A DNA stretch of 64,000 nt from Desulfobacterales bacterium (GTDB taxonomy: Bacteria; Desulfobacterota; Desulfobacteria; Desulfobacterales; SKZT01), in contig JAGYNR010000001.1 in NCBI GenBank assembly GCA_018399715.1, forward strand, positions 8,128-72,127, in the 5' to 3' direction. Every line of letters starts with the position of its first letter. Position 1 is the first letter of the stretch. Shown here piece by piece: positions 7,152 through 24,395 of this stretch. The notes beneath the pieces are model-generated. The model ran no database searches and was not told the origin of the DNA. It worked only from the letters and a program-made list of their open reading frames with translations. The position numbers and the translations under genes were made by a program.

Positions 7152-7769
7152 TTATCCTTCATTTTCATATAATCTATAGTAATCAATTACCTTTTGCACA
7201 TACCTTTGGGTTTCCGAATATGGTGGAATGCTTCCGTATCGATCTACGGCGGAGGGGCCTGCATTGTATGCCGCAAGAGATAGCAATATATCGCCGTTAT
7301 ATCGCTGGAGCATATTTTTTAGATACCGGGCACCCCCCATTATATTTTGCAATGGATCAAAAGGGTCATTGATAGACAATAAATTGAAATTTTGCGGCAT
7401 GATCTGCATTAAACCGATTGCGCCTTTTTTGGATATGGCATCACAATTAAAATTCGATTCAACCTTGATAATCGCTTTGATCAAATTGCAGGAAAGATTA
7501 TAGTGAGTAGACGCCTGAATAATATATTCATTGATTTTTTCAATATTAAAATAAGTTGAATCCGTACTTCCGATTTCTTCCAGGTACGGTTTATAATTTA
7601 AAGGCTTTCCTGCGGTTGCAACGGGTGTATTGGTAAAATGAACCACCCCGTCTTTGTCTACATATCTGAATATTTCCGCTCCCCCTGTTATGGGACTGCA
7701 AAAACTTAAAAAACATATCAGCAAAAAATAGTTTTTTGCGCTCAATACATTCATCCTTGAAATAATCAT
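7152..7769 (-). CDS. lytic transglycosylase (DUF4124-like N-terminus plus SLT domain)
   Basis: IFRYVDKDGVVHFTNTP (DUF4124-like). SLT block KVESNFNCDAISKKGAIGLMQIMP and AAYNAG. Confidence 0.8.
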   Translation of the reverse strand: MIISRMNVLSAKNYFLLICFLSFCSPITGGAEIFRYVDKDGVVHFTNTPVATAGKPLNYKPYLEEIGSTDSTYFNIEKINEYIIQASTHYNLSCNLIKAIIKVESNFNCDAISKKGAIGLMQIMPQNFNLLSINDPFDPLQNIMGGARYLKNMLQRYNGDILLSLAAYNAGPSAVDRYGSIPPYSETQRYVQKVIDYYRLYENEG

Positions 7770-10700
7770 TAAAACATCTGAAGCTGAACCTGACTATTTT
7801 GGGTCTTGTTTTTTACATTCATTTTCTCGTAAAATCTCAGACATTGTTCGATTTGACCTACGAAAGGAGACAACTTTCTGTTTACAATTTTTCCATATAT
7901 CTGTCGTCTGTGAGACCAGGTTAAAAAAAGATACTCCATGGCCCGGGTCATGGCTACATAAAAAAGGCGGCGTTCCTCATCTATATCCTGGCAAATACCG
8001 GCATCATGGTTATATGGAATCAACTCATCTTCGCAACCCGCTATAAATACTACCGGAAACTCTAATCCCTTAGACGCATGCATTGTCATCAATGCAACTC
8101 TTTCGGCTTTTGGGATATAAACATCAGGATCGGTCTGTAATGCTGCCATAGACAAAAATTTACAAATATTCTGACCAAACTCCATGGAAAAATCAAGAAT
8201 TTTATTCAACGCTTTTTGGGAGGAATCATTGGTATTTTCCAGAGATCTGCTGATATAATGGTCAACCAGTATTTCTAATTTTTTACGGACAGTCACAGCA
8301 TCTTTGCACTTTTCTTTCATCCGTTGTATATCGGCCATGGTAAAGGTGACCAACTTCTTCCGGTCTGGTAAGGTCGCCATATTTTCGACTATTCGTAGCA
8401 TTGAAATGACTTCAACGACACTTTTCGTGCTAAAAACATGTTTTTTGGCCACCAGTTGATAAGGAATTCCTCGTCGCCTGAAAGCATCCGCTAACACTTC
8501 TCCTTGTTTTCGTGTTCTGAAAAGAACAGCAAAATCAGAAAAACCTTTATCCCGATGTTCATTGCTAACCTGAATTCTTCCGGAATCGATACTATAAAAA
8601 TCTGCTCCGCCCATAAGTTTTTCCACCTGCCGGGCGATAGTTTCCGCTTCGGCTTTTTCAGAGATGGTTTCAATGATCCTGACAGTTGATATACTTTTTA
8701 TGGTAGAAAAAAGTTGTTCAGATGAAAATTCTGATCTTGATTTTTCAATAACCTGGTAAGATGCCTTTAAAATCGTTTGGGAAGACCGGTAGTTTCTTTT
8801 AAGACGGATAATTTCGGCATCCGGATAATCATTCAGCAATTGTTGAAAATACATAATATCCGAACCTCTGAATCCATATATTGCCTGGTCGGGATCACCA
8901 ATAACGCAAAGCTTAGAACTTTCATCAGCTAGTAAATTCTTTGTCTCACCCGGTACCATTGCCTTGATAAACCGGTACTGGGCCTTATTCAAATCCTGAT
9001 ATTCATCCACAAAAATATACTGAAATTGATCCTGATACGTTTTCAAAAAAGCAGAATCGGACTCAAAGCGCTTAACCACGTTGGTGATCAAGTCTTCAAA
9101 ATCCCAAAGTTTTTCGGATGCTAACCGTTTCTGATAAACATCAAAAACGGTTTTAATGACATCTCCGGTAAATTGGGCGGGGAACTCAATATTTTGTTTT
9201 GCCGCTACAATTTTATCCAATATGACCTGCGGTTTCTCTTTAATATGAATTCCCTCGGACAACAAGCCGTTGATCGCTTCCTGAACATAAAATATCCGAT
9301 CCTCATCATTTAAAACCGAAAAACCTTCATATTCGGGTAATTTTTGTAACATATGGATACAAACCGAATGAAAGGTTCCTACAAACGGCAGTTGTTTTAC
9401 ATTATTTCCCAATAAACGGGTAAGGCGATCTTTCATTTCAGAGGCGGCTTTATTTGTAAACGTTACCGCCAGGATTTTTTCCGGTATCACCTGTTTTTCC
9501 CGGATCAAATGGACAATTTTGTACGTTAAGGTTCTTGTTTTTCCGGTTCCGGGTCCGGCTACAATCAAAAGAACCCTTCCCAAATGATAAACGGCATGAC
9601 GCTGCTCTTCATTAAGGCATTCGGTTTTTCTGTTTTCGGAATCTTTCCCGGTATGTTTTTTCATGGGTTTTGCCGGAGACGTTTTTGGGAGGAATATTTC
9701 CGGTTCATCTGTTTTTCGTGTTACGCGGTTTTCTTTTTGAACAAAGATATCATCCTGGGAGAATACAAAAAGAGATTTTTGGGCAGTGAGTATCTCGCGT
9801 TCCCCGTCTTTAAAAATTTTTACTTTTCCGTATTCTCCGTCATAACCAGGATGTATAAAAACTTTGTTTTCCCGCATACGCTCTACTGCTACTTTTAACA
9901 GCGGAACATTGATGTTATCCAAAGCTTCAGACGGTATCTGATATAAAACTTTAAGTTCGGGTCCGCCTTTGGAAATAACGACGTGATATGCCTCTTCAAC
10001 TTTTTTGCTTTTTGGTCCGACCCGGAAGATTTCTGAAAGGATATCAACAAGCGGAACAATACTGATATAGGTATTTGAATATTTCGGTTTGATACCCTCA
10101 CAACGGTCAGACAACGCATTGATCCGGTAAAGCACGCCGAGTGTCAAAGGTTTTCCGCACACCGGGCAAATGCCATTATTAAGACAGGTTTGTTCGGGAT
10201 TAAAACAGATGCCGCATTTACGATGTCCGTCATAATGATATTTACCTTCTTGGGGATAAAATTCAAGGGTTCCTATAAACTTTTCAGGATCACCCGTCTT
10301 CATGGCATCAATGATGGAAAAATAATCTAAACCTGTATTGAACAAGTTAGCTTCTCTTCCCAAATTTGCCGGTGAATGGGCATCGGAATTGGAGACCAGC
10401 GTTAAATTATCGAGACTTGATATTCTCCAGTTCATCGCAGGATCGGATGACAGACCGGTTTCAACAGCGGTTATATAAGATGTCAAATCTTCAAAACACT
10501 CCCGGATAGAATCAAAACCTGATTTGGAACCTAATACAGAAAACCAGGGTGTCCAGATATGGGCAGGGATGAAAAAACCATGCTCAGATGTATCCAGCAT
10601 TATTTCCAGTAAATCTCTTGAGTCTAATCCCAATATGGGTCTTCCATCTGAGGCAATGTTTCCGATAGCTGAAAGTTTCGCAGAAAAATCAGAAACCGCT

Positions 10701-11050
10701 TTTAAATCAGGAAAAAAAATCAGGTTATGAACCTTACGGGTTTTTCCGTTTTTTTTATAAATATTGCTGATTTCAGTTGTCAAAATAAACCGGACATCGT
10801 TTCTGCATACGCTGGGTACCAGTTTATCACATGATTTTGCTATATCCGGTTTTAAGCGAAACAGCCCTTGTTCTGCCGGAACCAGTTTTTCCCGAATTTC
10901 CTCAAACCATTCGGGATGCGTAAAATCACCCGTTCCCACAACGGTGATACCTTTTTTCTGAGCTGATATATAAAGATTTTCTAGGTCCAGATTTTTGGCA
11001 GTTGCCCGCGAAAATTTAGAATGAACATGAAAATCCCCAATAAATCTCAT
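7769..11050 (-). CDS. EndoQ-like PHP/Zn-finger endonuclease fused to a UvrD/PcrA-type SF1 helicase
   Basis: N-terminal part: DFHVHSKFSRA, GTGDFTHPEW, PAHIWTPW, SNSDAHSPANLGREAN, a Cys4 finger and PGYDGEYGKVKIF. C-terminal part: AGPGTGKT, AVTFTNKAA, DEYQD, GDPDQAIYGFRG, MHASKGLEFPVVF and YVAMTRA. The likely start is ATG 11048-11050 with an AAGGA SD. The ORF is open to 11101. Confidence 0.8.
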   Translation of the reverse strand: MRFIGDFHVHSKFSRATAKNLDLENLYISAQKKGITVVGTGDFTHPEWFEEIREKLVPAEQGLFRLKPDIAKSCDKLVPSVCRNDVRFILTTEISNIYKKNGKTRKVHNLIFFPDLKAVSDFSAKLSAIGNIASDGRPILGLDSRDLLEIMLDTSEHGFFIPAHIWTPWFSVLGSKSGFDSIRECFEDLTSYITAVETGLSSDPAMNWRISSLDNLTLVSNSDAHSPANLGREANLFNTGLDYFSIIDAMKTGDPEKFIGTLEFYPQEGKYHYDGHRKCGICFNPEQTCLNNGICPVCGKPLTLGVLYRINALSDRCEGIKPKYSNTYISIVPLVDILSEIFRVGPKSKKVEEAYHVVISKGGPELKVLYQIPSEALDNINVPLLKVAVERMRENKVFIHPGYDGEYGKVKIFKDGEREILTAQKSLFVFSQDDIFVQKENRVTRKTDEPEIFLPKTSPAKPMKKHTGKDSENRKTECLNEEQRHAVYHLGRVLLIVAGPGTGKTRTLTYKIVHLIREKQVIPEKILAVTFTNKAASEMKDRLTRLLGNNVKQLPFVGTFHSVCIHMLQKLPEYEGFSVLNDEDRIFYVQEAINGLLSEGIHIKEKPQVILDKIVAAKQNIEFPAQFTGDVIKTVFDVYQKRLASEKLWDFEDLITNVVKRFESDSAFLKTYQDQFQYIFVDEYQDLNKAQYRFIKAMVPGETKNLLADESSKLCVIGDPDQAIYGFRGSDIMYFQQLLNDYPDAEIIRLKRNYRSSQTILKASYQVIEKSRSEFSSEQLFSTIKSISTVRIIETISEKAEAETIARQVEKLMGGADFYSIDSGRIQVSNEHRDKGFSDFAVLFRTRKQGEVLADAFRRRGIPYQLVAKKHVFSTKSVVEVISMLRIVENMATLPDRKKLVTFTMADIQRMKEKCKDAVTVRKKLEILVDHYISRSLENTNDSSQKALNKILDFSMEFGQNICKFLSMAALQTDPDVYIPKAERVALMTMHASKGLEFPVVFIAGCEDELIPYNHDAGICQDIDEERRLFYVAMTRAMEYLFLTWSHRRQIYGKIVNRKLSPFVGQIEQCLRFYEKMNVKNKTQNSQVQLQMF

Positions 11051-11109
11051 CACTTGTCCTTTATGGATATCCACTGTTAATAACAATGGGAAGTTGTTCA
11101 ATTAACTCT

Positions 11110-11377: not shown

Positions 11378-14005
11378 TTAGGCTTCGATTACTATCCCCT
11401 TCCTTAAACCTGAAAACCATTGGTCGTATAAAACCGGCGTAAGAAGATCGAACATGTAATGCTGCCGGGCATCCGGGCGGTATTTTTTGGAAATATCAGC
11501 GATATTCACCGTTTTTAATCGCTGGTTTACCTTTTTAAAGTGTGCCTTGGCGTATTCGGCCTTGGCCGGGGTGGATTCGTCCTGGTCGTCATCCGACTTG
11601 ATTTCTACCACCCGGATCAGATATTCGATGCCCTCGTCCTGAAAATTTCTCAACGTCTCAATGTGGTTATTTTGTCCTTTGGTGATCAGTTTTAACAGGT
11701 AATTATCCAAATGTATTTTAATAAAAAAATCCGGGTTAAATCCCCGGCGTGTTCTGTCTTTACCGCCTCGCCAGAATTCGTAGTCTATGCTGTAAAATCC
11801 CTTGTCCGGGGATTTAATCCAGGCATCGATATAATCCGCGTGATCGATTAACTGAAAAACAAATTCCCTTTCCGGGGTATGCGACACTAAAACGATGTAT
11901 TGCGGGTTTTTAAGTCTGGACGCGTTGACCACATAGGGGGATCGTTCATCGTTTTCCACCAATGATCGGATAATATCCGGATGTGCTGTAATAAAAGGAT
12001 CTGCATCAAACATCGGAAGCATGAGTTGTTTACCTTGTTGTTGGGTGCCTCGCCATTCACTCAAAAATTCCAGAACTGTTTTGTTGTCATCAGAAAGTTC
12101 GGTTTCATAATCTTCACTCAAAAATGCGGTGGCATCTTTATCCAGTTCACTTAACCGCAGACTGTGTTTATCCATATCGCATGTTGCTGTGGGTATAAGG
12201 TTACCCTCAATATTTTCAAAAATCCGTTTTTTGGTTCCCGGCGGCAAAAACTGGTTAAAATAATTTTCGATTTGTTTTTTGTTTTCCAGGGAAAGCCGGT
12301 TGCCTGTTATATCAACCGTTTCCATGGCTTTTTGGATGACGGCCTTGATATCTTCCTCGGTCGGATACCGATCGGCAACGATCACCTCGCCAAAGTCAAG
12401 ATGACCGGCCCGAAATAGTTCGGGATTTATCAGGGGCCTTGAGGAAATATACATGTCACTCTGGGTTACTGCGTCGACCAGTTCTTTGATATGATCGGCA
12501 AAACGGTCATGATTGGTCACGGTCAGACAGGGATATGTTTGATGAATATGAGCGCTGGGAATATTTCGGGGAATCCGCAACCCACGGCCCAGTACCTGGG
12601 ATATGAGAAGCTTGGATTTAAACACCCGCTCTTCCATGGGCACAATCTGAAAAACATTGTCCACATCCCAACCTTCGGACAGCTTGTTGACGGCGAATAT
12701 GTACTCTACAGAACCACCTGTTTTTTGGGGGTTAATTTCTTCAATATGTTCCAGTTGCTCCTTATATTCAGATTCTGAAATGCGGCTGACCACGCAGATC
12801 ACCTTTTGTCGCATCTGGCCAGTAATTTCAGAATCCGTGCCGGTCGCGCCCTTATGCTTCTTTTCGTAATCAGCCAAAAATTTGATAAACGCTTCACTTC
12901 TGTCTTGAGCGTTTTTCTGGGTAGGGCAGATAAATATCGTGACCGGCTTGACCTGCCGTTTGCCTCTTAACCGGTAGGCGTATTTTTTCCGGTTATCCAG
13001 GTGGTTTTTCAGAACAATCTCAAACCGCTGATCAATTGTCAGGGGCTTATCGCCTTCATCGGTCCGGGTACGCACATTGTTGTTGATGTCCTTGATGTAT
13101 TTCTGATTAATGGCATCTTTGATGGAATAGTTGTAGATGATATCGGCAAAATATTCATCCTTGTTATAAGGCGTGCCAGTAAAGCCGATATGCCGGGTAA
13201 TCTTCTTGTTTCTTCTTAAAAACTGCATCCACAAGCGTTCTTCTTTTTCAGCAGTTCGCTTACCTTCGACCGTTTCATCCTTGTCCATGACCAATTGATT
13301 TTGTGAAAATTGTAAATGGGAATAGGCATGATGGATTTCATCGCCCAGCACCAGCACTTCGTCTGTGTTTTTAAACAGGGTATCGGTAATCGAGCCAAAC
13401 GTGTAAACCGCGTTGATATTTTCAATAACGATGGAATCGTCTTCAATGGGATCGTTGTCGTTTAAGATGTTAATGGCTTTACCCCGATATTTCATTGGCA
13501 GCTCTTCCATCAGGCTTTTATCGGTCATCAGGTCTTTAAACTTTTCCCGAAGGCCCTGTTCGATAATAGTTGAAGCCGGCCCCAACACCAGAACCCGGCG
13601 GGTTAGTCCCATCACCAAAAAAAGATATGCCACGGCAAAAATCACGTAAGACTTGCCAGTGCCGGTAGCCATGTGCACAACGCCGGACAACCGGTCCGGT
13701 AAGGGTAAATGGTTTACCAACATTTTTTGACTGCTGAACCGCTGCTGAATCCGGGGCTTCACGTAATTATCTTTAGCTAAATCGACAATGGTTTTATAGG
13801 CACCACCCCAGAGATAGATCATGACCTGCTTAATGGCCTGCTTCTGGTATTCCCGCGTTCCGGTTAATTGGTCTACATAATCTTCAATCTCCGAAAAATT
13901 GAATTTGTTGTAGTTACACCGCCGGATATTGATGTCCAGGGTGTGTTCGGACAAGTTCATCTTTTTAACGACCGATTTTTTCTTTTTCTGTCTGGACATG
14001 AGCAT
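11378..14005 (-). CDS. res: Type III restriction endonuclease, Res subunit (SF2 helicase-nuclease)
   Basis: Walker A MATGTGKSY and DEAH-like LGDEIHHAY. Size is 875 aa. The start ATG overlaps the extended mod frame as TAATG. Confidence 0.8.
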   Translation of the reverse strand: MLMSRQKKKKSVVKKMNLSEHTLDINIRRCNYNKFNFSEIEDYVDQLTGTREYQKQAIKQVMIYLWGGAYKTIVDLAKDNYVKPRIQQRFSSQKMLVNHLPLPDRLSGVVHMATGTGKSYVIFAVAYLFLVMGLTRRVLVLGPASTIIEQGLREKFKDLMTDKSLMEELPMKYRGKAINILNDNDPIEDDSIVIENINAVYTFGSITDTLFKNTDEVLVLGDEIHHAYSHLQFSQNQLVMDKDETVEGKRTAEKEERLWMQFLRRNKKITRHIGFTGTPYNKDEYFADIIYNYSIKDAINQKYIKDINNNVRTRTDEGDKPLTIDQRFEIVLKNHLDNRKKYAYRLRGKRQVKPVTIFICPTQKNAQDRSEAFIKFLADYEKKHKGATGTDSEITGQMRQKVICVVSRISESEYKEQLEHIEEINPQKTGGSVEYIFAVNKLSEGWDVDNVFQIVPMEERVFKSKLLISQVLGRGLRIPRNIPSAHIHQTYPCLTVTNHDRFADHIKELVDAVTQSDMYISSRPLINPELFRAGHLDFGEVIVADRYPTEEDIKAVIQKAMETVDITGNRLSLENKKQIENYFNQFLPPGTKKRIFENIEGNLIPTATCDMDKHSLRLSELDKDATAFLSEDYETELSDDNKTVLEFLSEWRGTQQQGKQLMLPMFDADPFITAHPDIIRSLVENDERSPYVVNASRLKNPQYIVLVSHTPEREFVFQLIDHADYIDAWIKSPDKGFYSIDYEFWRGGKDRTRRGFNPDFFIKIHLDNYLLKLITKGQNNHIETLRNFQDEGIEYLIRVVEIKSDDDQDESTPAKAEYAKAHFKKVNQRLKTVNIADISKKYRPDARQHYMFDLLTPVLYDQWFSGLRKGIVIEA

Positions 14006-14133
14006 TAATCTTTAAGAATAAAAGGGTTGCTTTCATTTCCGTGCTTGTCGATGGCAATTACTGCCACACTGTTGGTTAATCCGGAAATTTTGATTTCCTG
14101 GTTTTGGTTGATATCCCTGGCAAAGACTGTTTT

Positions 14134-16065
14134 TTACATATCAAAAATGTTGTTGTCATAATTTACATCTACCAGCAACATGGCCAGACCTTCCAGGCCG
14201 TTAAATTTTTCACCGTTTCGATTTAAAATACCGGTTTTAAATTTTGTAATCTTTAAGCCCTCCTTGATTTTTTTGACGGCAATCTCAACCTCATCGTTAA
14301 AATAAAAACCGGTAGCGTTGATCAGGTGATTGACATTCTCCTGGGAGTTGGGCTGTTCGGTAATCTGAAAATTGCGGGAGACCTCCTCTAAAACTTTATA
14401 GGGAAACTTTAGCAGCTTAAAGTGAACTTCCTTGCCGCTATCGTTTTTCAGGATGGTATCACCGATGACGGTACAGGTCTCCGGTGTGATAATGTAATAG
14501 TCACCTCTTAATTTACCGCCGGACTGAATCAGGATCTGTTTTAAATAATCTTCGTCGATGCGGATGTCTTTCAGGTATTCATCTTCCCAGACCGGGTATA
14601 CCTCCACCGGGTGCCCGTCCTTTTCCCCGTAGATATTGACCAGTTTGTACTTGCCGTTGAGGTTTTTCGAGTCCCGGGGCAGTTGAAACAGGCCCAGCAC
14701 AAAATTGATGTACGCATCCTTGTTTTCCCGCAGGTTTATGATACGGGAAAAGTCATAGGCCCCGCAGGAGACCACGCAAAACGGTTGAGGGCCTTTGCCG
14801 TATTTTTTATTGGCGCGAACATTTTTATTCAGGTCTTTTGATTCTCCAATGCGCAGGATGCGTTTTTGCATGGTGTAAATGGCATGCTTGCCGAAATCAC
14901 AAACTATCCAGCGACGCCCCAGCTTTTCCGCCACTGCCGCCGTGGTGCCGGAACCGGCAAACACATCCATTACCAAGTCGCCGGGATTGGATGAGGCGCG
15001 AATGATACGTTCAAGAAGGGCTTCTGGTTTTTGGGTGGGGTAATCAACTCTTTCTTTCGCTTGTGAATTAATATAATTGATTTCCCAAACATCAGGGGCA
15101 ATAGTTTTTGTTATATCAATTACAACTTTTCGAGCAAATTCATTAATATCAATTCTGCCTTCTTGTATTGCTGCATCAACTTTTTCTTTGTTATAAATAA
15201 TTAGTTGGGGCTGCCTTTTCCCATTTATATATACAGAATTTCTATCCCAACCCTTTTCATGTTTCTTTCTTTGTCCTTCTGTCGGTTCAATATGTACTTT
15301 ATTTAGATTATATTGATGTGTTTTTGAATACCAGAGAATTGAATCGTGCATATTTTGAAATGAATCGCTTGCAGCCGTCCATCTTCGGTAAAACCAAACT
15401 ATATCATTTCGAAAATTATTTTTTCCGAATACTTCGTCTAAAATCACTTTTATATAATGGCTCATTTTATAATCCAGATGGACATAAATACTTCCGTCTT
15501 CCGCCAAGATATTTCTCAATAAAATCAGTCGCTCTCTTACGCCTTCGATAAACTCGGCTGCTACCACCTTGTCTGAATAACTCTTTTCATCCCCCGCCCC
15601 GCCAAAATCACTCTTGGTCGCAAACGGCGGATCAATATAAACCAGCTTGACCTTGCCTTTAACCTTGTCCTTGATCAGGGGGTCCTGGTTCTGAAAGCAG
15701 GTTTTTAAGAACTGAAGGTTATCGCCCTGAACGATCAGGTTCACCCAGTCGGTCTTTGATTTGTTCAGAAAGTCCAGGAGTTCGAGCTGGGTATGGCCGG
15801 AGAGGCTCCCCTCGTTGAAAAATCGCTCGGCCTGCAACGGCGAGCCGCTTTCCATGGCAAAAGTCTGGTTTAAAATAGCGGCATCACTGCGTTTGCCCGC
15901 ATATTCCAGGGTAGCTATTTTGGCTTTATCCAGGATAGCCACATCATATTTCTCCGCCACATGGGGAAAAAGCTTGGGCATCAGCTCCGGGGGCGGTTCG
16001 GTGCTTTCGTTGATGGCTTCCATAATCTGCTGTTTTTCTTCATCGGTCAGGTTTGTCTTTGCCAT
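14134..16065 (-). CDS. mod: Type III DNA methyltransferase, Mod subunit (beta-class N6A/N4C MTase), apparently truncated by an in-frame TAA
   Basis: Motif [16 protein letters not shown] comes before motif [25 protein letters not shown]. The same frame continues for 42 sense codons after the TAA (14134-14136), down to a TAA at 14005-14007. Confidence 0.8.
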
Positions 16066-16251: not shown

Positions 16252-16815
16252 TTAATTTTTCGGATACCATAAGGCGGCCCTGGTAGCACCGATATGGTAG
16301 ATCTTTCCATCGCTTTTAAGTTCAGCAACCAGCTTTTTTACCTGGTTGTCGGACAGAAACGGTAACACCTGCATGAGCTCCTTGAACCGGCTGCCGGATT
16401 CTTTGTTATCTTGTATGTGTTTCATCAGCAAAGCCTTGTTCGTTTCCCGGTCCAGCCCTTTTTTGCGAGTGTAAGCGCCTTTTTGACCGGTCATTTTATA
16501 ATATCCTCGTCCCAGCATATAGCGGACACCACGACCCCGACCGTATCGTTCGATAATGCCCATGGAAACCAGTCGTTGAAGTCTGGATTTGAGTGAATCC
16601 GGTATGGGTTGACTCCGGTGAATCAGGTCCAGTAACAAAAAATCTTCGGTTCCGAAAAGCTCTAGTCTTTCCCTACCCACTTTTTCCAGAAACTGAAGAA
16701 AACGAACATCCTGAACCTCGCCGTTTAAGGTTAACGTCACCTGATAGGCGTCCGTTCCCGTAAAATCCGGAATGGATTTACCTTCCTGGATGCTTAACTC
16801 AAACATCAGGTTCAT
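16252..16815 (-). pseudogene. COG2865 RecG-like ATP-binding/transcriptional regulator, C-terminal fragment (wHTH)
   Basis: It continues the 16819-17337 ORF in the same frame across one TAG. The junction reads ...GLVERSG * G MNLMFELSIQEG..., matching the family pattern ER.GsGi.rm. Confidence 0.6.
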
Positions 16816-16818
16816 GCC

Positions 16819-17337
16819 CTAGCCGGAACGCTCCACCAGCCCGCATTTGGAGAAGATATCGGCCACACGGCGGTTGCGCGGGGCCTGGCGGTTTAAGATG
16901 TTATGCTCATTGATTCCCGGCGGAAACCCGCCGGGACTTTCAATCACCAGACGGCGAGGGTACTGACGAACAAAAATATTGCCGGGATGCCGGTAGTCCC
17001 GGTGACTGACGGCATTCAAAACGGCCTCGCGGACGGGCCGTTCGGAAAAGGTGGGAATATCCTCGATAAACAGACCTGTCTGGAAATGCTGCAAGTCGTT
17101 GCGAAGGTTGATGATATCCCACAACTGGTCGTAGAAACTGAAAAACCCCTGCCGGAACTCTACCCGCTGCTGAGCCGGACCGGAGGCATCTGAAGACCGG
17201 TATTCAAATACCACTTCCGCCCGGGCAAGATGACGGCCCATGGCCGCATGGGTGCCGAACAGAATCAGAGCGGCATAGGTCGGCCTGCCATCTGCCATGG
17301 CTTCAATATCATTTAAAAATGGTACGTTCCGTTTCAT
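16819..17337 (-). pseudogene. COG2865 RecG-like ATP-binding protein, HATPase_c_4-like fragment lacking the N-terminal AlbA_2 domain
   Basis: TYAALILFG, REAVLNAVSHRDYRHPGNIFVRQYPRRLVIESPGGFPPG and RNRRVADIFSKCGLVERSG. Visibly more GC-rich than its neighbours. Confidence 0.6.
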
Positions 17338-18506
17338 TAGCGGCTAAAAGCCTGTGTCAACAACTGGTCAAGTACATTAACTTCGGACTGCCCCGGTTGT
17401 TCCGGCCTCAGGTTGAACTTGTTTATCCGCAGGAACCGGTAACCGTAACTTTCCAGCTCTATCTGGCGTCTGATGTCATAGTCGAGGTATTCGGCGGAAA
17501 AATTGTGCTTGGTGACAGTGTCCGGGTTTTTCGTGTGAAATTCCACACCATCATACTCCAGAATCAGGGCTTGTTCCCGCCCATTTCGGGCAAGAGTCAG
17601 CAGAAAATCTATACGGTATCGGGGAATCTGTTTATGGTATTTCGTCCGTATATATTCACCAATATTAAATTGGGGCACGATCTTGAGATTTTCCCGGTGT
17701 GTTTCCACAAACCGTGTATTTATCAGCAACTGATAAAGGCGCTCTTCAGCCGGAGACTCAAAAACAGACGGGTCTTCTACAAAAAAATCGTTCTTTTTCG
17801 TGGTTTCAAGAAGCGCATGGTAGTGCTTCAAGGCATCTCCCAGGCGTGAGTGGCTGTAATCGCTGATCTGCATATTGTGAACAAATACCATGGTGTCTTT
17901 AGCTCTGCTGAACCCAACATTTAAGCGCTGCATTTTCAGGCTGCGAGTAGTGTCGGCCGTTCCACCGATCACAGGATAAATGGTTCTCAAATCCGCATTG
18001 ACATATTTTTTATCTTCCACAAAAGAATAATAAACTATATCGCGCTCTTCGCCCTGAACATCACCTACAAACCAAACTGCCAGGTTGTGGTTTCGTTTGA
18101 GTTCCGGCAGATTCATTTTTTCGTTGATGGCCTGCTCCATTCGGAGCTGCTGTTCCTTAAACGACGTAATAATGCCGATAGAGCCTGTAAAACCGTTGGA
18201 GATCCTGGTATTAAAATCTTCAATGATGGCGTCGATTTCATCAAGATTAACGTTGCGGCCTGAATCGCCCCTGGTTTCAACCCGAATAAACTGAAGCACC
18301 TGGATGACGGGCCGGGTACGAATCCGATTAACCGTCAGTTCAAGCTGGGCCGACTGGTAAAAAAATGTATTGGAATAGTCGATAATTTCCGAAAAGCTGC
18401 GGTAATGGTCCCGTAAAGAAGTAGTGTAGTTGGCGATGGCTTTGGCAAAACTCAGGGTAGAGGTACGTATTTTGACTGTCACGTGCCAGGAGTTGCAGTA
18501 TGTCAA
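17337..18506 (-). pseudogene. SF1 helicase C-terminal (AAA_12-like) plus DUF559/Vsr-like endonuclease domain, remnant
   Basis: GDVQGEERDIVYYS and RLNVGFSRAKDTMVFV (helicase motifs V/VI). C-terminal YRIDFLL...LILEYDGVEFH. No Walker A anywhere upstream. It overlaps the next ORF in another frame. Confidence 0.6.
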
Positions 18507-18945
18507 ACTGCTGTTTTAAAAAATGGGTGCTGTTGAAAATTGATGCAGGGACTATAGAAAGTCCCAGTTGGGCTTTTAACCGACCTATTTTCTGATCCTG
18601 TTGATCAATCAATATCTGTTCAAGTTGCTTTCGAAGAGCCAGGTTGTATTTTCGAGTCCCCTCCTGAAAAGCTTTTGTCTTTTGCTGTTGTTTTCTTTCA
18701 AAATCCAATGGGTCATCTTGTAACGCTACCTGGATTTCCTGATCAGATGCAATAAGTACCTTATCTGCTTTAACAATAGCGACAAGTTCCTGTTCAACGC
18801 ATGTTTGTAAATAACCCGGACCGAATTTATCAGAAAGCGCTTTCTCGATATCTAAAAGCACATCGTCTTTTAGCAGCGTTATTGTATGCTCATGTGACTT
18901 TATCACAACGGGTTTATTATCGCCTGCTTTAATTTTTGCCAGCAA
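18340..18945 (-). pseudogene. upstream fragment of the same helicase-nuclease gene (frameshifted, N-terminally truncated)
   Basis: It overlaps 17337-18506 by 167 nt in a different frame. Its own frame is closed by a stop at about 18970. No ATPase motifs. Confidence 0.45.
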
Positions 18946-19628
18946 CTGTTCCTGGAATTTTTGAAATAATCATAGGTCAAAAGAAAACTCATCATCAGTC
19001 CAGCAATAATTGACAAGTGTTTTAAAATTGAATTTTGTTTCCGTAAATGCGGCAAAGTAATTTAGGATGGTAACTGGAAGCTTTTTTGAGTTTGACCGCA
19101 TATGCTTTTCGTTTTTTTTCTATTATTGGGATAACAATGATATGTTGGCACCATCTTTTGTTCTATACAACGTAAATATATCCTGATTTTTGCTTAACTT
19201 AAAGGATATCCTGTTTGTAAACATGAGAAAAATGGCAATGTTTAGATTAAATCTTGTTAATAACATCACACTTATAAACAAAATTTAGATTTTGGTCAAA
19301 AAGTCAAATCATATCCACAATTAATATATAGATGATTAACAGTTGCAGAGAAATGAATGGGAAATAAAATCAAGTAATTAGAGAATTGATAGAGATATAA
19401 ACAACGTATAATATTAATAATATTATATAAATATAAAATAATTATTTAATGTTATAATATCCACAGACGACATACTGTACGGAAAAAAATCTTGTTTACC
19501 TTTATAAAACAGTATATAGTAATTTGATTATCATTTTGATCCTGTTATGGTAGTTTTGAAATCTTAACTGATATCAGATGACATAATTTTGTATATAAAT
19601 CAAGTTATCGAAAGTTTTAAATATCAAT
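18946..19628. other. candidate replication-origin (oriC-like) AT-rich region at a coding-strand switch
   Basis: It is a 680-bp non-coding AT-rich spacer. All genes from 3840 to 18945 are on the minus strand and all from 19629 to 25063 are on the plus strand. ATATCCACA occurs at 19311-19319 and 19457-19465 (8/9 to TTATCCACA). dnaN-gyrB lie immediately downstream. Confidence 0.4.
19248..19443. repeat. AT-rich imperfect direct repeat, right copy (partner at 11110-11305)
   Basis: See the left copy. The offset between copies is 8138 bp throughout the aligned blocks. Confidence 0.75.
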
Positions 19629-20240
19629 ATGGGGCTCTTATCTACATCTGTTTCTATCACACAATACCAGGTAAAAGGAACACTTGAATCTGTTCTAGAT
19701 ACTGTAGGAAAAGGATTGAAAAAAAACAGTATACAGGAAATCGATGATGATGTGTCAGACAGTGCTATTGGATGGACTTCCATTGATCATCCGTTTAAGC
19801 CTGATTTTGAAACATCATCATTTATTTTCGGTATTTATCTGGTTTTCTCATTGAGAATTGACAAAAAAAGTATTCCCGTAAAGGTGTTAAATAAATATTG
19901 TGCATTAGAAGCTGACAAAATGTTGTCTGAAAATGGACGAAACTATTTGAATCGAAATGAAAAACGAATGATCAAAGATCGGGTATATACACAGCTTTTG
20001 AAACGCTATCCGGCAACACCGAGTATTTATGATGTCATATGGAATTATGAAGCGGGAACGTTATGGTTTTTTTCAAATCAAAAAAGGCCAAATGAAGAGC
20101 TGGAAACACTTTTCTCAAAATCTTTCCATTTAAATCTGATCCGGATTTTTCCATTTACTGCAGCGGATTTGACAATGGATCTGAAGGAAAAAGAACGGGA
20201 TATATTGATTCAATTGTCGCCCACACAATTTTCGGAGTAG
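19629..20240 (+). CDS. RdgC-like recombination-associated protein, N-terminal-half homologue
   Basis: It aligns by eye to about the first 175 residues of E. coli RdgC: GW..., KKSIPVKVL, LNRNEKRMIKDRVYTQLLKR, WNYEAGTLWFFSNQKRPNEELETLFSKSF. Confidence 0.55.
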   Translation: MGLLSTSVSITQYQVKGTLESVLDTVGKGLKKNSIQEIDDDVSDSAIGWTSIDHPFKPDFETSSFIFGIYLVFSLRIDKKSIPVKVLNKYCALEADKMLSENGRNYLNRNEKRMIKDRVYTQLLKRYPATPSIYDVIWNYEAGTLWFFSNQKRPNEELETLFSKSFHLNLIRIFPFTAADLTMDLKEKERDILIQLSPTQFSE

Positions 20241-20245
20241 GTGTT

Positions 20246-20770
20246 ATGCTCGATGTTTCAGTGTCTTATAACCGCTACAAATTTCTTGGACATGAATTTT
20301 TAACATGGCTTTGGTTTCTGACAGAAAATCAAAGGGATTTTATTCATGAAAAAGTGGCTGACTTGACATCACTGGAAATTGGCAATCGGGTTGTTTTGGA
20401 AAACCGTTTTAAAGATACTTTGGAGACCATAACGATCAAAGGCGATGATGCTGGTTTAGAGGAAGGAATTCTATCATTAAAAAAAGGGGCGGTAGTAACC
20501 GAGTTAAATTTAACCTATACGTTTGACGAGTTGGAATGGCAGTTTTCATTGAAAGGTGAAAGCCTTGCCATTTCAGGATTAAAAACACCGGCAACATTGC
20601 CTGTAAACAATACAGAGGATATTGAAGAAGTTGTTTTAGAAAAAGTAATGCATTACGAAAAAATGATTGATTTTATCAACATAATTTTTCGTGAGTTTAT
20701 TAACAAAAGAATATCTGAAGATTGGGAACAAACGGTTGTTCCTGAAATCAGAAAATGGATTACGAAATAA
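20246..20770 (+). CDS. RdgC-like protein, C-terminal-half homologue
   Basis: FLTWLW, ITIKGDD..LEEGILSLKKGAVVTELNLTY..WQFSLKGESLAISGLK and a terminal acidic/helical part parallel RdgC residues from about 175 to 300. It has its own ATG with a GGAG 8 nt upstream. Confidence 0.5.
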   Translation: MLDVSVSYNRYKFLGHEFLTWLWFLTENQRDFIHEKVADLTSLEIGNRVVLENRFKDTLETITIKGDDAGLEEGILSLKKGAVVTELNLTYTFDELEWQFSLKGESLAISGLKTPATLPVNNTEDIEEVVLEKVMHYEKMIDFINIIFREFINKRISEDWEQTVVPEIRKWITK

Positions 20771-20847
20771 GCTTATATTGATAAGCCGGAAACGAAGATA
20801 ATTGATGCTTTTTTACGTATTGTCGTAGGGATATTAGGATACACATT

Positions 20848-24395
<3,548 letters not shown>

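Follow-up and report, generated by a model that had tools for sequence, protein, structure and literature searches.

Does the mod gene of a Type III-like restriction-modification pair in a Desulfobacterales genome still end where its coding sequence once ended, and, if it does not, can the system to which it belongs still function? The question is raised by a 64,000-nucleotide (nt) stretch of contig JAGYNR010000001.1 (assembly GCA_018399715.1, positions 8,128 to 72,127 of the forward strand; hereafter, the window), in which a mod reading frame on the minus strand runs into a TAA codon 42 sense codons ahead of a second TAA at the border of the downstream res gene. Here, we propose that the upstream TAA is a nonsense mutation and that it is one of several lesions in a four-gene defence island (11.4-19.1 kb, minus strand), which has very probably undergone ordinary pseudogenisation, i.e., been lost by mutation in a Desulfobacterales-like chromosome. 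The island comprises, in this order, genes for a superfamily 1 (SF1) helicase, an SLFN/AlbA-like ATPase, the methyltransferase Mod and the restriction subunit Res, and adjoins the rdgC-dnaN-gyrB region.

The truncated mod open reading frame (ORF; 16065..14134, minus strand) has 643 codons plus the stop and encodes a beta-class N6_N4 DNA methyltransferase (PF01555, E=2.5e-53), whose C-terminal end, ...NYDNNIFDM, is followed directly by the TAA at 14136-14134 of the minus strand. The same frame continues for 42 orphaned codons (14133-14008, minus strand; KTVFARDINQNQEIKISGLTNSVAVIAIDKHGNESNPFILKD) down to the second TAA (14007-14005, minus strand). The initial annotation had described this arrangement exactly, coordinates included. 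The length of the open frame alone is within chance, as at least 42 in-frame sense codons follow the stop in four of the 44 long ORFs of the window (median 7.5 codons; G+C content of the window 43.6%), and it is homology that lifts the tail above chance.

The conceptual read-through Mod (686 codons) served as query in a homologue search, from which the best 120 matches were analysed. All but one of these cover ~100% of the query, the exception being the 643-amino-acid (aa) product of the window itself. The alignment column occupied by the stop holds aspartate in 96 and glutamate in 19 homologues, and glycine and histidine in one each, and is thus acidic in 115 of the 117 sequences aligned there. 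Apart from the product of the window, just four sequences end at this column or no more than 12 residues after it, all of them fragments; three are labelled partial by NCBI, and the unlabelled fourth (P0103, 629 aa) was taken as a fragment from its length. Across the 115 homologues with a complete tail, the tail shares 40-100% (median 64%) of its residues with that of the window, as compared to 63% for the rest of the protein, and contains the near-invariant block GLT..AV.AID.HGNES. The homologues end at the second TAA or within a few residues of it, which identifies 14007-14005 as the ancestral mod stop. Alignment of the read-through product to Mod homologues had been put forward in the initial annotation as a check on its own proposal, and the outcome is a conserved tail that only fragments and the truncated product itself lack.

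The closest relative, P0003, occurs on five contigs from three JGI metagenome samples and one public sequencing run (Logan), of which four were fetched (L001-L004). Its tail matches that of the window in 42 of 42 residues. These sister loci are near-identical to the window and encode Mod (715 aa) and Res (954-956 aa) of intact length; the DNA of L001 is 97% identical over the block around the mod end and 97-99% identical across the syntenic locus (blastn). All four contigs read gatatgGAAaaaaca at the site where the window reads gatatgTAAaaaaca. L001 and L002 have GAA there in an otherwise identical context, and L001 also shares the TAA at the ancestral stop. Judged from these comparisons, the mod lesion is a single G>T nonsense substitution (C>A at 14136 on the plus strand) that turned a conserved acidic codon, GAA for glutamate, into the premature TAA (14134..14136, minus strand). 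The event is apparently recent, as only two further DNA differences from L001, both synonymous, are found within the orphaned tail. The sister loci with GAA and the aspartate or glutamate at the stop column of the homologues bear out the earlier proposal of a nonsense mutation, and the match of the tail to the C-termini of 115 homologues bears out that of a 129-nt spacer derived from the original mod 3' end. In the sister lineage, P0003 (L001 6001-8148, residues ~396-404) replaces the F[AG]GSGTT of the S-adenosylmethionine-binding motif I by FARTGTT, alone among the 120 homologues. Together with the shortened helicase gene described below, this points to an island that may be losing function in the sister lineage as well.

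It is barely conceivable that the TAA serves a purpose, being read through or recoded in a programmed manner or acting as a reversible switch of phase variation, such that full-length Mod is produced conditionally. An A-run does follow the stop (TAAAAAAC), and the frame is open down to the ancestral stop. However, the sister lineage simply has GAA, and the change is a substitution, not a change in repeat length, which slipped-strand switching cannot restore. A phasevarion-type switch is also not what the site resembles, given that the G>T substitution leaves the frame unchanged and that the A6 run downstream of it is equally long in L001. Reassignment of TAA was rejected because TAA is the commonest stop in the window, terminating 29 of its 44 long ORFs. 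An RNA element in the 129-nt spacer was rejected as well (fold z = -0.9; no Rfam match in the window).

Is the mod stop an isolated change? The initial annotation had missed the wider context, which, in comparison with L001, consists of five more lesions in the res, SLFN/AlbA-like and helicase genes. The res ORF (11378..14005, minus strand; 875 codons) encodes a superfamily 2 (SF2) helicase (ResIII, PF04851, E=2.9e-17; Pfam matches ResIII/SWI2_SNF2) with a C-terminal PD-(D/E)xK-like region. It has suffered an in-frame deletion of 243 bp (81 codons) with a junction at ~12400-12403 and 4 bp of microhomology. The missing segment of 81 residues follows directly after the helicase core, carries the motifs h.F.LFNLNY...LTPF...R.KD.KRY...RF in homologues and spans 79-88 residues in all 119 other homologues, which makes the deletion unique among 120. 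The SF2 motifs ATGTGKS and GDEIHH, invariant in 48 homologues, are retained. The C-terminal region is conserved (PEKEF...FNPDFF...VEIKSD) and fits PD-(D/E)xK by eye; its 225 aa matched no Pfam family at E<=10 beyond a sub-threshold DUF4874. PADLOC reports a partial match of Res to REase_III (E=3.9e-17), a sequence search against PDB chains returned no match, and the best, weak match of a poor fold model (predicted local distance difference test score, pLDDT, 57) is the EcoP15I Res chain 4zcf_C. The solved structure of EcoP15I does not include its nuclease domain.

Both genes upstream of mod are present as remnants. The SLFN_AlbA_2/HATPase_c_4 gene (16252..17337, minus strand), which in L001 and L005 codes for 539 aa, is missing the start codon and the first 184 codons owing to a 551-bp deletion (junction 17318/17319) and carries an in-frame TAG at 16821-16819 in place of an ancestral CAG. 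The SF1 helicase gene (AAA_11/AAA_12; 17337..19101, minus strand) encodes 1436-1496 aa in L005, L006 and L090, and in L001 it is already reduced to 690 aa, with ~700 internal residues gone. The window copy has a further, frameshifting deletion of 308 bp (junction 18471-18475) and an in-frame TGA at 18972-18970 where the ancestral codon is GGA. Microhomology at the deletion junctions of the island amounts to no more than 4-5 bp. Each of the three nonsense changes found in the island is a G/C>T substitution when read on the coding strand.

This clustering bears on the explanation that an error in sequencing, consensus or assembly produced the TAA and that the organism has GAA and a 686-aa Mod. 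The contig apparently derives from an uncultured genome, whose closest GyrB relatives are metagenome-assembled genomes (MAGs) with at most 71% identity, and the TAA allele was seen once, with no independent copy found. However, random errors would not cluster as five further inactivating lesions in three neighbours next to ~50 kb of densely and normally coding flanks, and the deletions, with their short microhomology, are not repeat-collapse artefacts. Even with the base in mod wrong, res would still lack 81 conserved residues. We consider an error very unlikely, as the confinement of six inactivating changes to four adjacent defence genes argues for real gene decay.

Pseudogenisation of the whole island thus is the reading that we favour. 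The G>T change turned the conserved Glu codon into a stop and ends Mod translation 42 codons early; it would break the C-terminal domain of Mod and, if this domain acts as in EcoP15I, abolish docking of Res. Independently of the mod stop, 81 conserved residues are missing from Res and both upstream genes are disrupted, so that the restriction system would be non-functional whatever the mod stop does. Type III Res is inactive in the absence of Mod; losing Mod is therefore not toxic to the cell itself, and decay can proceed freely. The initial annotation had expected a truncated Mod, lost coupling to res and a system that is either down-tuned or inactive; this was reasonable, but with six lesions in four genes the system would be dead rather than down-tuned. 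Several points weigh against pseudogenisation. The TAA allele rests on one assembly, and both the 643-aa Mod and the 875-aa Res occur as singletons in a collection of 15 billion proteins. Counts of synonymous and non-synonymous differences from L001 show no relaxed selection, although these counts are uninformative, and exact-pattern scans of genome and metagenome contig collections did not find the TAA allele, although they also missed the known L001 sequence. Lastly, the instability of truncated Mod and an EcoP15I-like binding of Res by its C-terminal domain are steps that we infer.

What, then, would the truncated Mod still be able to do? Motif IV (DPPF, at ~aa 145) and motif I (FAGSGTT, at ~aa 370) lie upstream of the stop and are intact. 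Between them, the variable central segment (15043..15394, minus strand; ~aa 200-340) is the presumed target-recognition domain, and it is here that the blastn alignment with L001 is interrupted. P0003 was modelled with AlphaFold2 from 58 aligned sequences (mean pLDDT 72.6); the model ends in a beta-rich domain, residues ~620-715, with a pLDDT of about 77-87. Residues 673-715, which correspond to the lost tail, contribute the strands 674-677, 686-688, 695-702 and 711-714, i.e., four of the ~nine strands of this domain. In a Foldseek search with the whole model, the best PDB matches were the three Type III Mod subunits with solved structures, namely 4zcf_A/B (EcoP15I), 6k0w (H. pylori) and 7dsu (Mbo45V). 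The 643-aa Mod would hence keep its catalytic core and recognition domain, and its C-terminal beta domain, with four of about nine strands gone, should not fold according to the model. In EcoP15I, the C-terminal domain of Mod (aa 539-644) of one protomer contacts Res extensively, and dimerisation and catalysis are mediated by the N-terminal and methyltransferase domains (PMC4490356). By analogy, truncated Mod would lose its docking to Res. The analogy is unproven, as the C-terminal region of Mod (286 aa, i.e., ~290) has neither a Pfam match at E<=10 nor a PDB sequence match.

These domain boundaries also bear on the proposal that, despite a genuine nonsense mutation, the 643-aa Mod remains active as a solitary methyltransferase, with restriction lost and methylation kept. 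The intact DPPF and FAGSGTT motifs and the whole recognition domain upstream of the stop speak for it, as does the finding that EcoP15I dimerises and catalyses without the C-terminal domain (PMC4490356), and retention of mod next to a dead res has a precedent, proposed for Neisseria and Haemophilus (PMC2667262). However, the modelled cut lies inside a folded beta domain and not in a linker, which would usually lead to misfolding or proteolysis. The tail is, moreover, conserved in every complete homologue, and the concurrent decay of the neighbours points to general loss instead of domestication. We therefore regard an active solitary Mod as unlikely.

The Mod of the window is a mosaic in a per-segment identity profile, in which the backbone is 90-100% identical to P0003 and the recognition segment only 15-47%; the latter is 70-97% identical to P0002 and 50-80% to P0004 and P0005. 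This profile implies exchange of the recognition domain between close relatives. It is tempting to go further and propose that the lineage actively shed the helicase/SLFN-like/Mod/Res island by six independent hits and that the truncated Mod, its catalytic core intact and its recognition domain recently exchanged, persists as a solitary methyltransferase. If true, this would be a Type III-like system caught in its transition to an orphan epigenetic enzyme, in a sulfate-reducer lineage from the environment, and the conserved C-terminal beta domain would be dispensable, as a module that docks Res or the helicase. This more elaborate scenario is more doubtful still.

Pseudogenisation would also affect the junction between mod and res. 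The ancestral mod stop at 14007-14005 overlaps an ATG at 14005-14003 as TAATG, and this ATG (14003-14005, minus strand) opens the 875-codon res ORF (14005..11378). The initial annotation had recognised the overlap correctly and interpreted it as a classic translational-coupling junction, which is only partly right, as the conserved start is probably the ATG at 13999. Homologous Res proteins begin with MA(R/G/K).. from an ATG located 4-8 nt past the mod stop in L001, L005, L008 and L090, where the junctions read TAAtgctcATGG, TAAcatcATGG, TAAataccATGG and TGAtaaaaaccATGG, respectively. The probable true res start in the window is accordingly the ATG at 13999-13997 (minus strand; MSRQKKKK...), which lies 5 nt beyond the ancestral stop of mod. 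The ATG within TAATG is present only in the lineage of the window, L001 and L002, and gene callers treat it inconsistently; the overlap is lineage-specific, and its ATG is probably not the start that is used. The res start lacks a strong Shine-Dalgarno sequence and has at best a weak AAAGA/AAGGA within the last Mod codons. Termination-reinitiation coupling of mod and res is thus plausible and should be lost when ribosomes stop ~135 nt upstream of the res start. A search for an internal res promoter in the spacer gave promoter-like matches only on the opposite strand and at chance frequency, and no terminator was found there.

How far does the decay extend? On one side, the island is flanked by a UvrD-like helicase gene (7769-11101) and an SLT transglycosylase gene, and on the other side by rdgC, a gene for a 174-aa protein, dnaN and gyrB (19629-24395, plus strand). 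The flanking genes are intact, with two aa differences in RdgC and none in the 174-aa protein, and with dnaN, gyrB and the UvrD-like gene at full length. Long ORFs make up 89% of the window, and the longest stretch free of them coincides with the helicase remnant. Judged by GyrB, the genome falls within the Desulfobacterales, where its closest relatives are MAGs and its identity to any species representative is at most 71%. With rdgC, the 174-aa gene, dnaN and gyrB as neighbours, the island probably abuts the replication-origin neighbourhood of the chromosome. The intact gene next to res (7769-11101, minus strand) encodes a UvrD/GajB-like helicase of 1110 aa with an N-terminal extension of ~490 aa; the Pfam matches of its L001 counterpart include MJ0043_C, and it may be a separate defence gene.

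In related loci, mod-res is usually preceded on the same strand by a gene for an SF1 helicase of 1436-1496 aa (AAA_11 and AAA_12), as seen in L090 (495-9940), L005 (1-10981), L006 (449-11708) and L001 (2106-11018). The arrangement is suggestive of a helicase-Mod-Res module that recurs, more than of a plain Type III system of two genes. Within the helicase, PADLOC matches are confined to the C-terminal part (MkoA/MkoC/PDC-S37-like). Further genes of defence type are inserted in these loci (L006 8121-8854 and 4817-5887; L007 8121-8686; L089 7026-7777 and 1093-4850; L005 3753-5372). An MNT (NTP_transf_2) and HEPN pair lies between mod and res in L006 and L089, an SLFN_AlbA_2/HATPase_c_4 gene or a DUF1016/YhcG nuclease gene is found between helicase and mod in relatives, and a Gabija-like GajA/GajB pair is located just upstream of mod.

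The main value of these findings lies in annotation; decay of such an island is not surprising and raises no new biological question. We suggest that mod be annotated as a pseudogene or truncated allele, res as an allele with an internal deletion and the two upstream ORF fragments as remnants, and we advise against predicting an active Type III specificity for this genome. The sister contigs, at 97-99% identity, nevertheless provide a clean within-species comparison of an intact-length and a decayed copy in a widespread, uncharacterised family of Type III-like systems of Desulfobacterales, and the pair constitutes a natural truncation that could be used to study the C-terminal beta domain of Mod.

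To which known systems does the locus compare? As in Type III Mods, motif IV precedes motif I and is separated from it by a variable recognition domain, and Res has the Walker A motif ATGTGKS and the DEAH-like GDEIHH of Type III Res helicases. Gene order agrees as well, with mod directly upstream of res, also at the ancestral junction of the window. Like EcoP15I and EcoP1I (Mod2Res1-2), relatives encode mod and then res on one strand, 4-8 nt apart. Mod corresponds to a beta-class N6-adenine methylase with its recognition domain between motif IV and motif I, Res has its SF2 ResIII helicase at the N-terminus and, judged by eye, may have an E...PD...ExK region at the C-terminus, and homologues are annotated by their sources as 'type III restriction enzyme'. 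In contrast to EcoP15I, Res has no PDB sequence match and only a partial PADLOC REase_III match, and the C-terminal beta domain of Mod cannot be equated with certainty with the alpha/beta domain at the C-terminus of EcoP15I Mod. The ~1450-aa SF1 helicase that usually precedes the pair in relatives also departs from a plain Type III system. The sequence and model features of the mod-res pair fit a Type III-like restriction-modification system. As for its inactivation, Type III systems of Neisseria are known to carry premature stops by point mutation in mod (modB1), frameshifts in res and an in-frame deletion of 250 aa in res (PMC2667262). The window shows the same classes of lesions as these. 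However, the Type III systems of Neisseria, Haemophilus and Helicobacter with naturally inactivated mod or res alleles are phase-variable by simple sequence repeats and often keep mod as a regulator (phasevarions), whereas the window has no repeat tract, mod itself is hit and its neighbours are decaying along with it.

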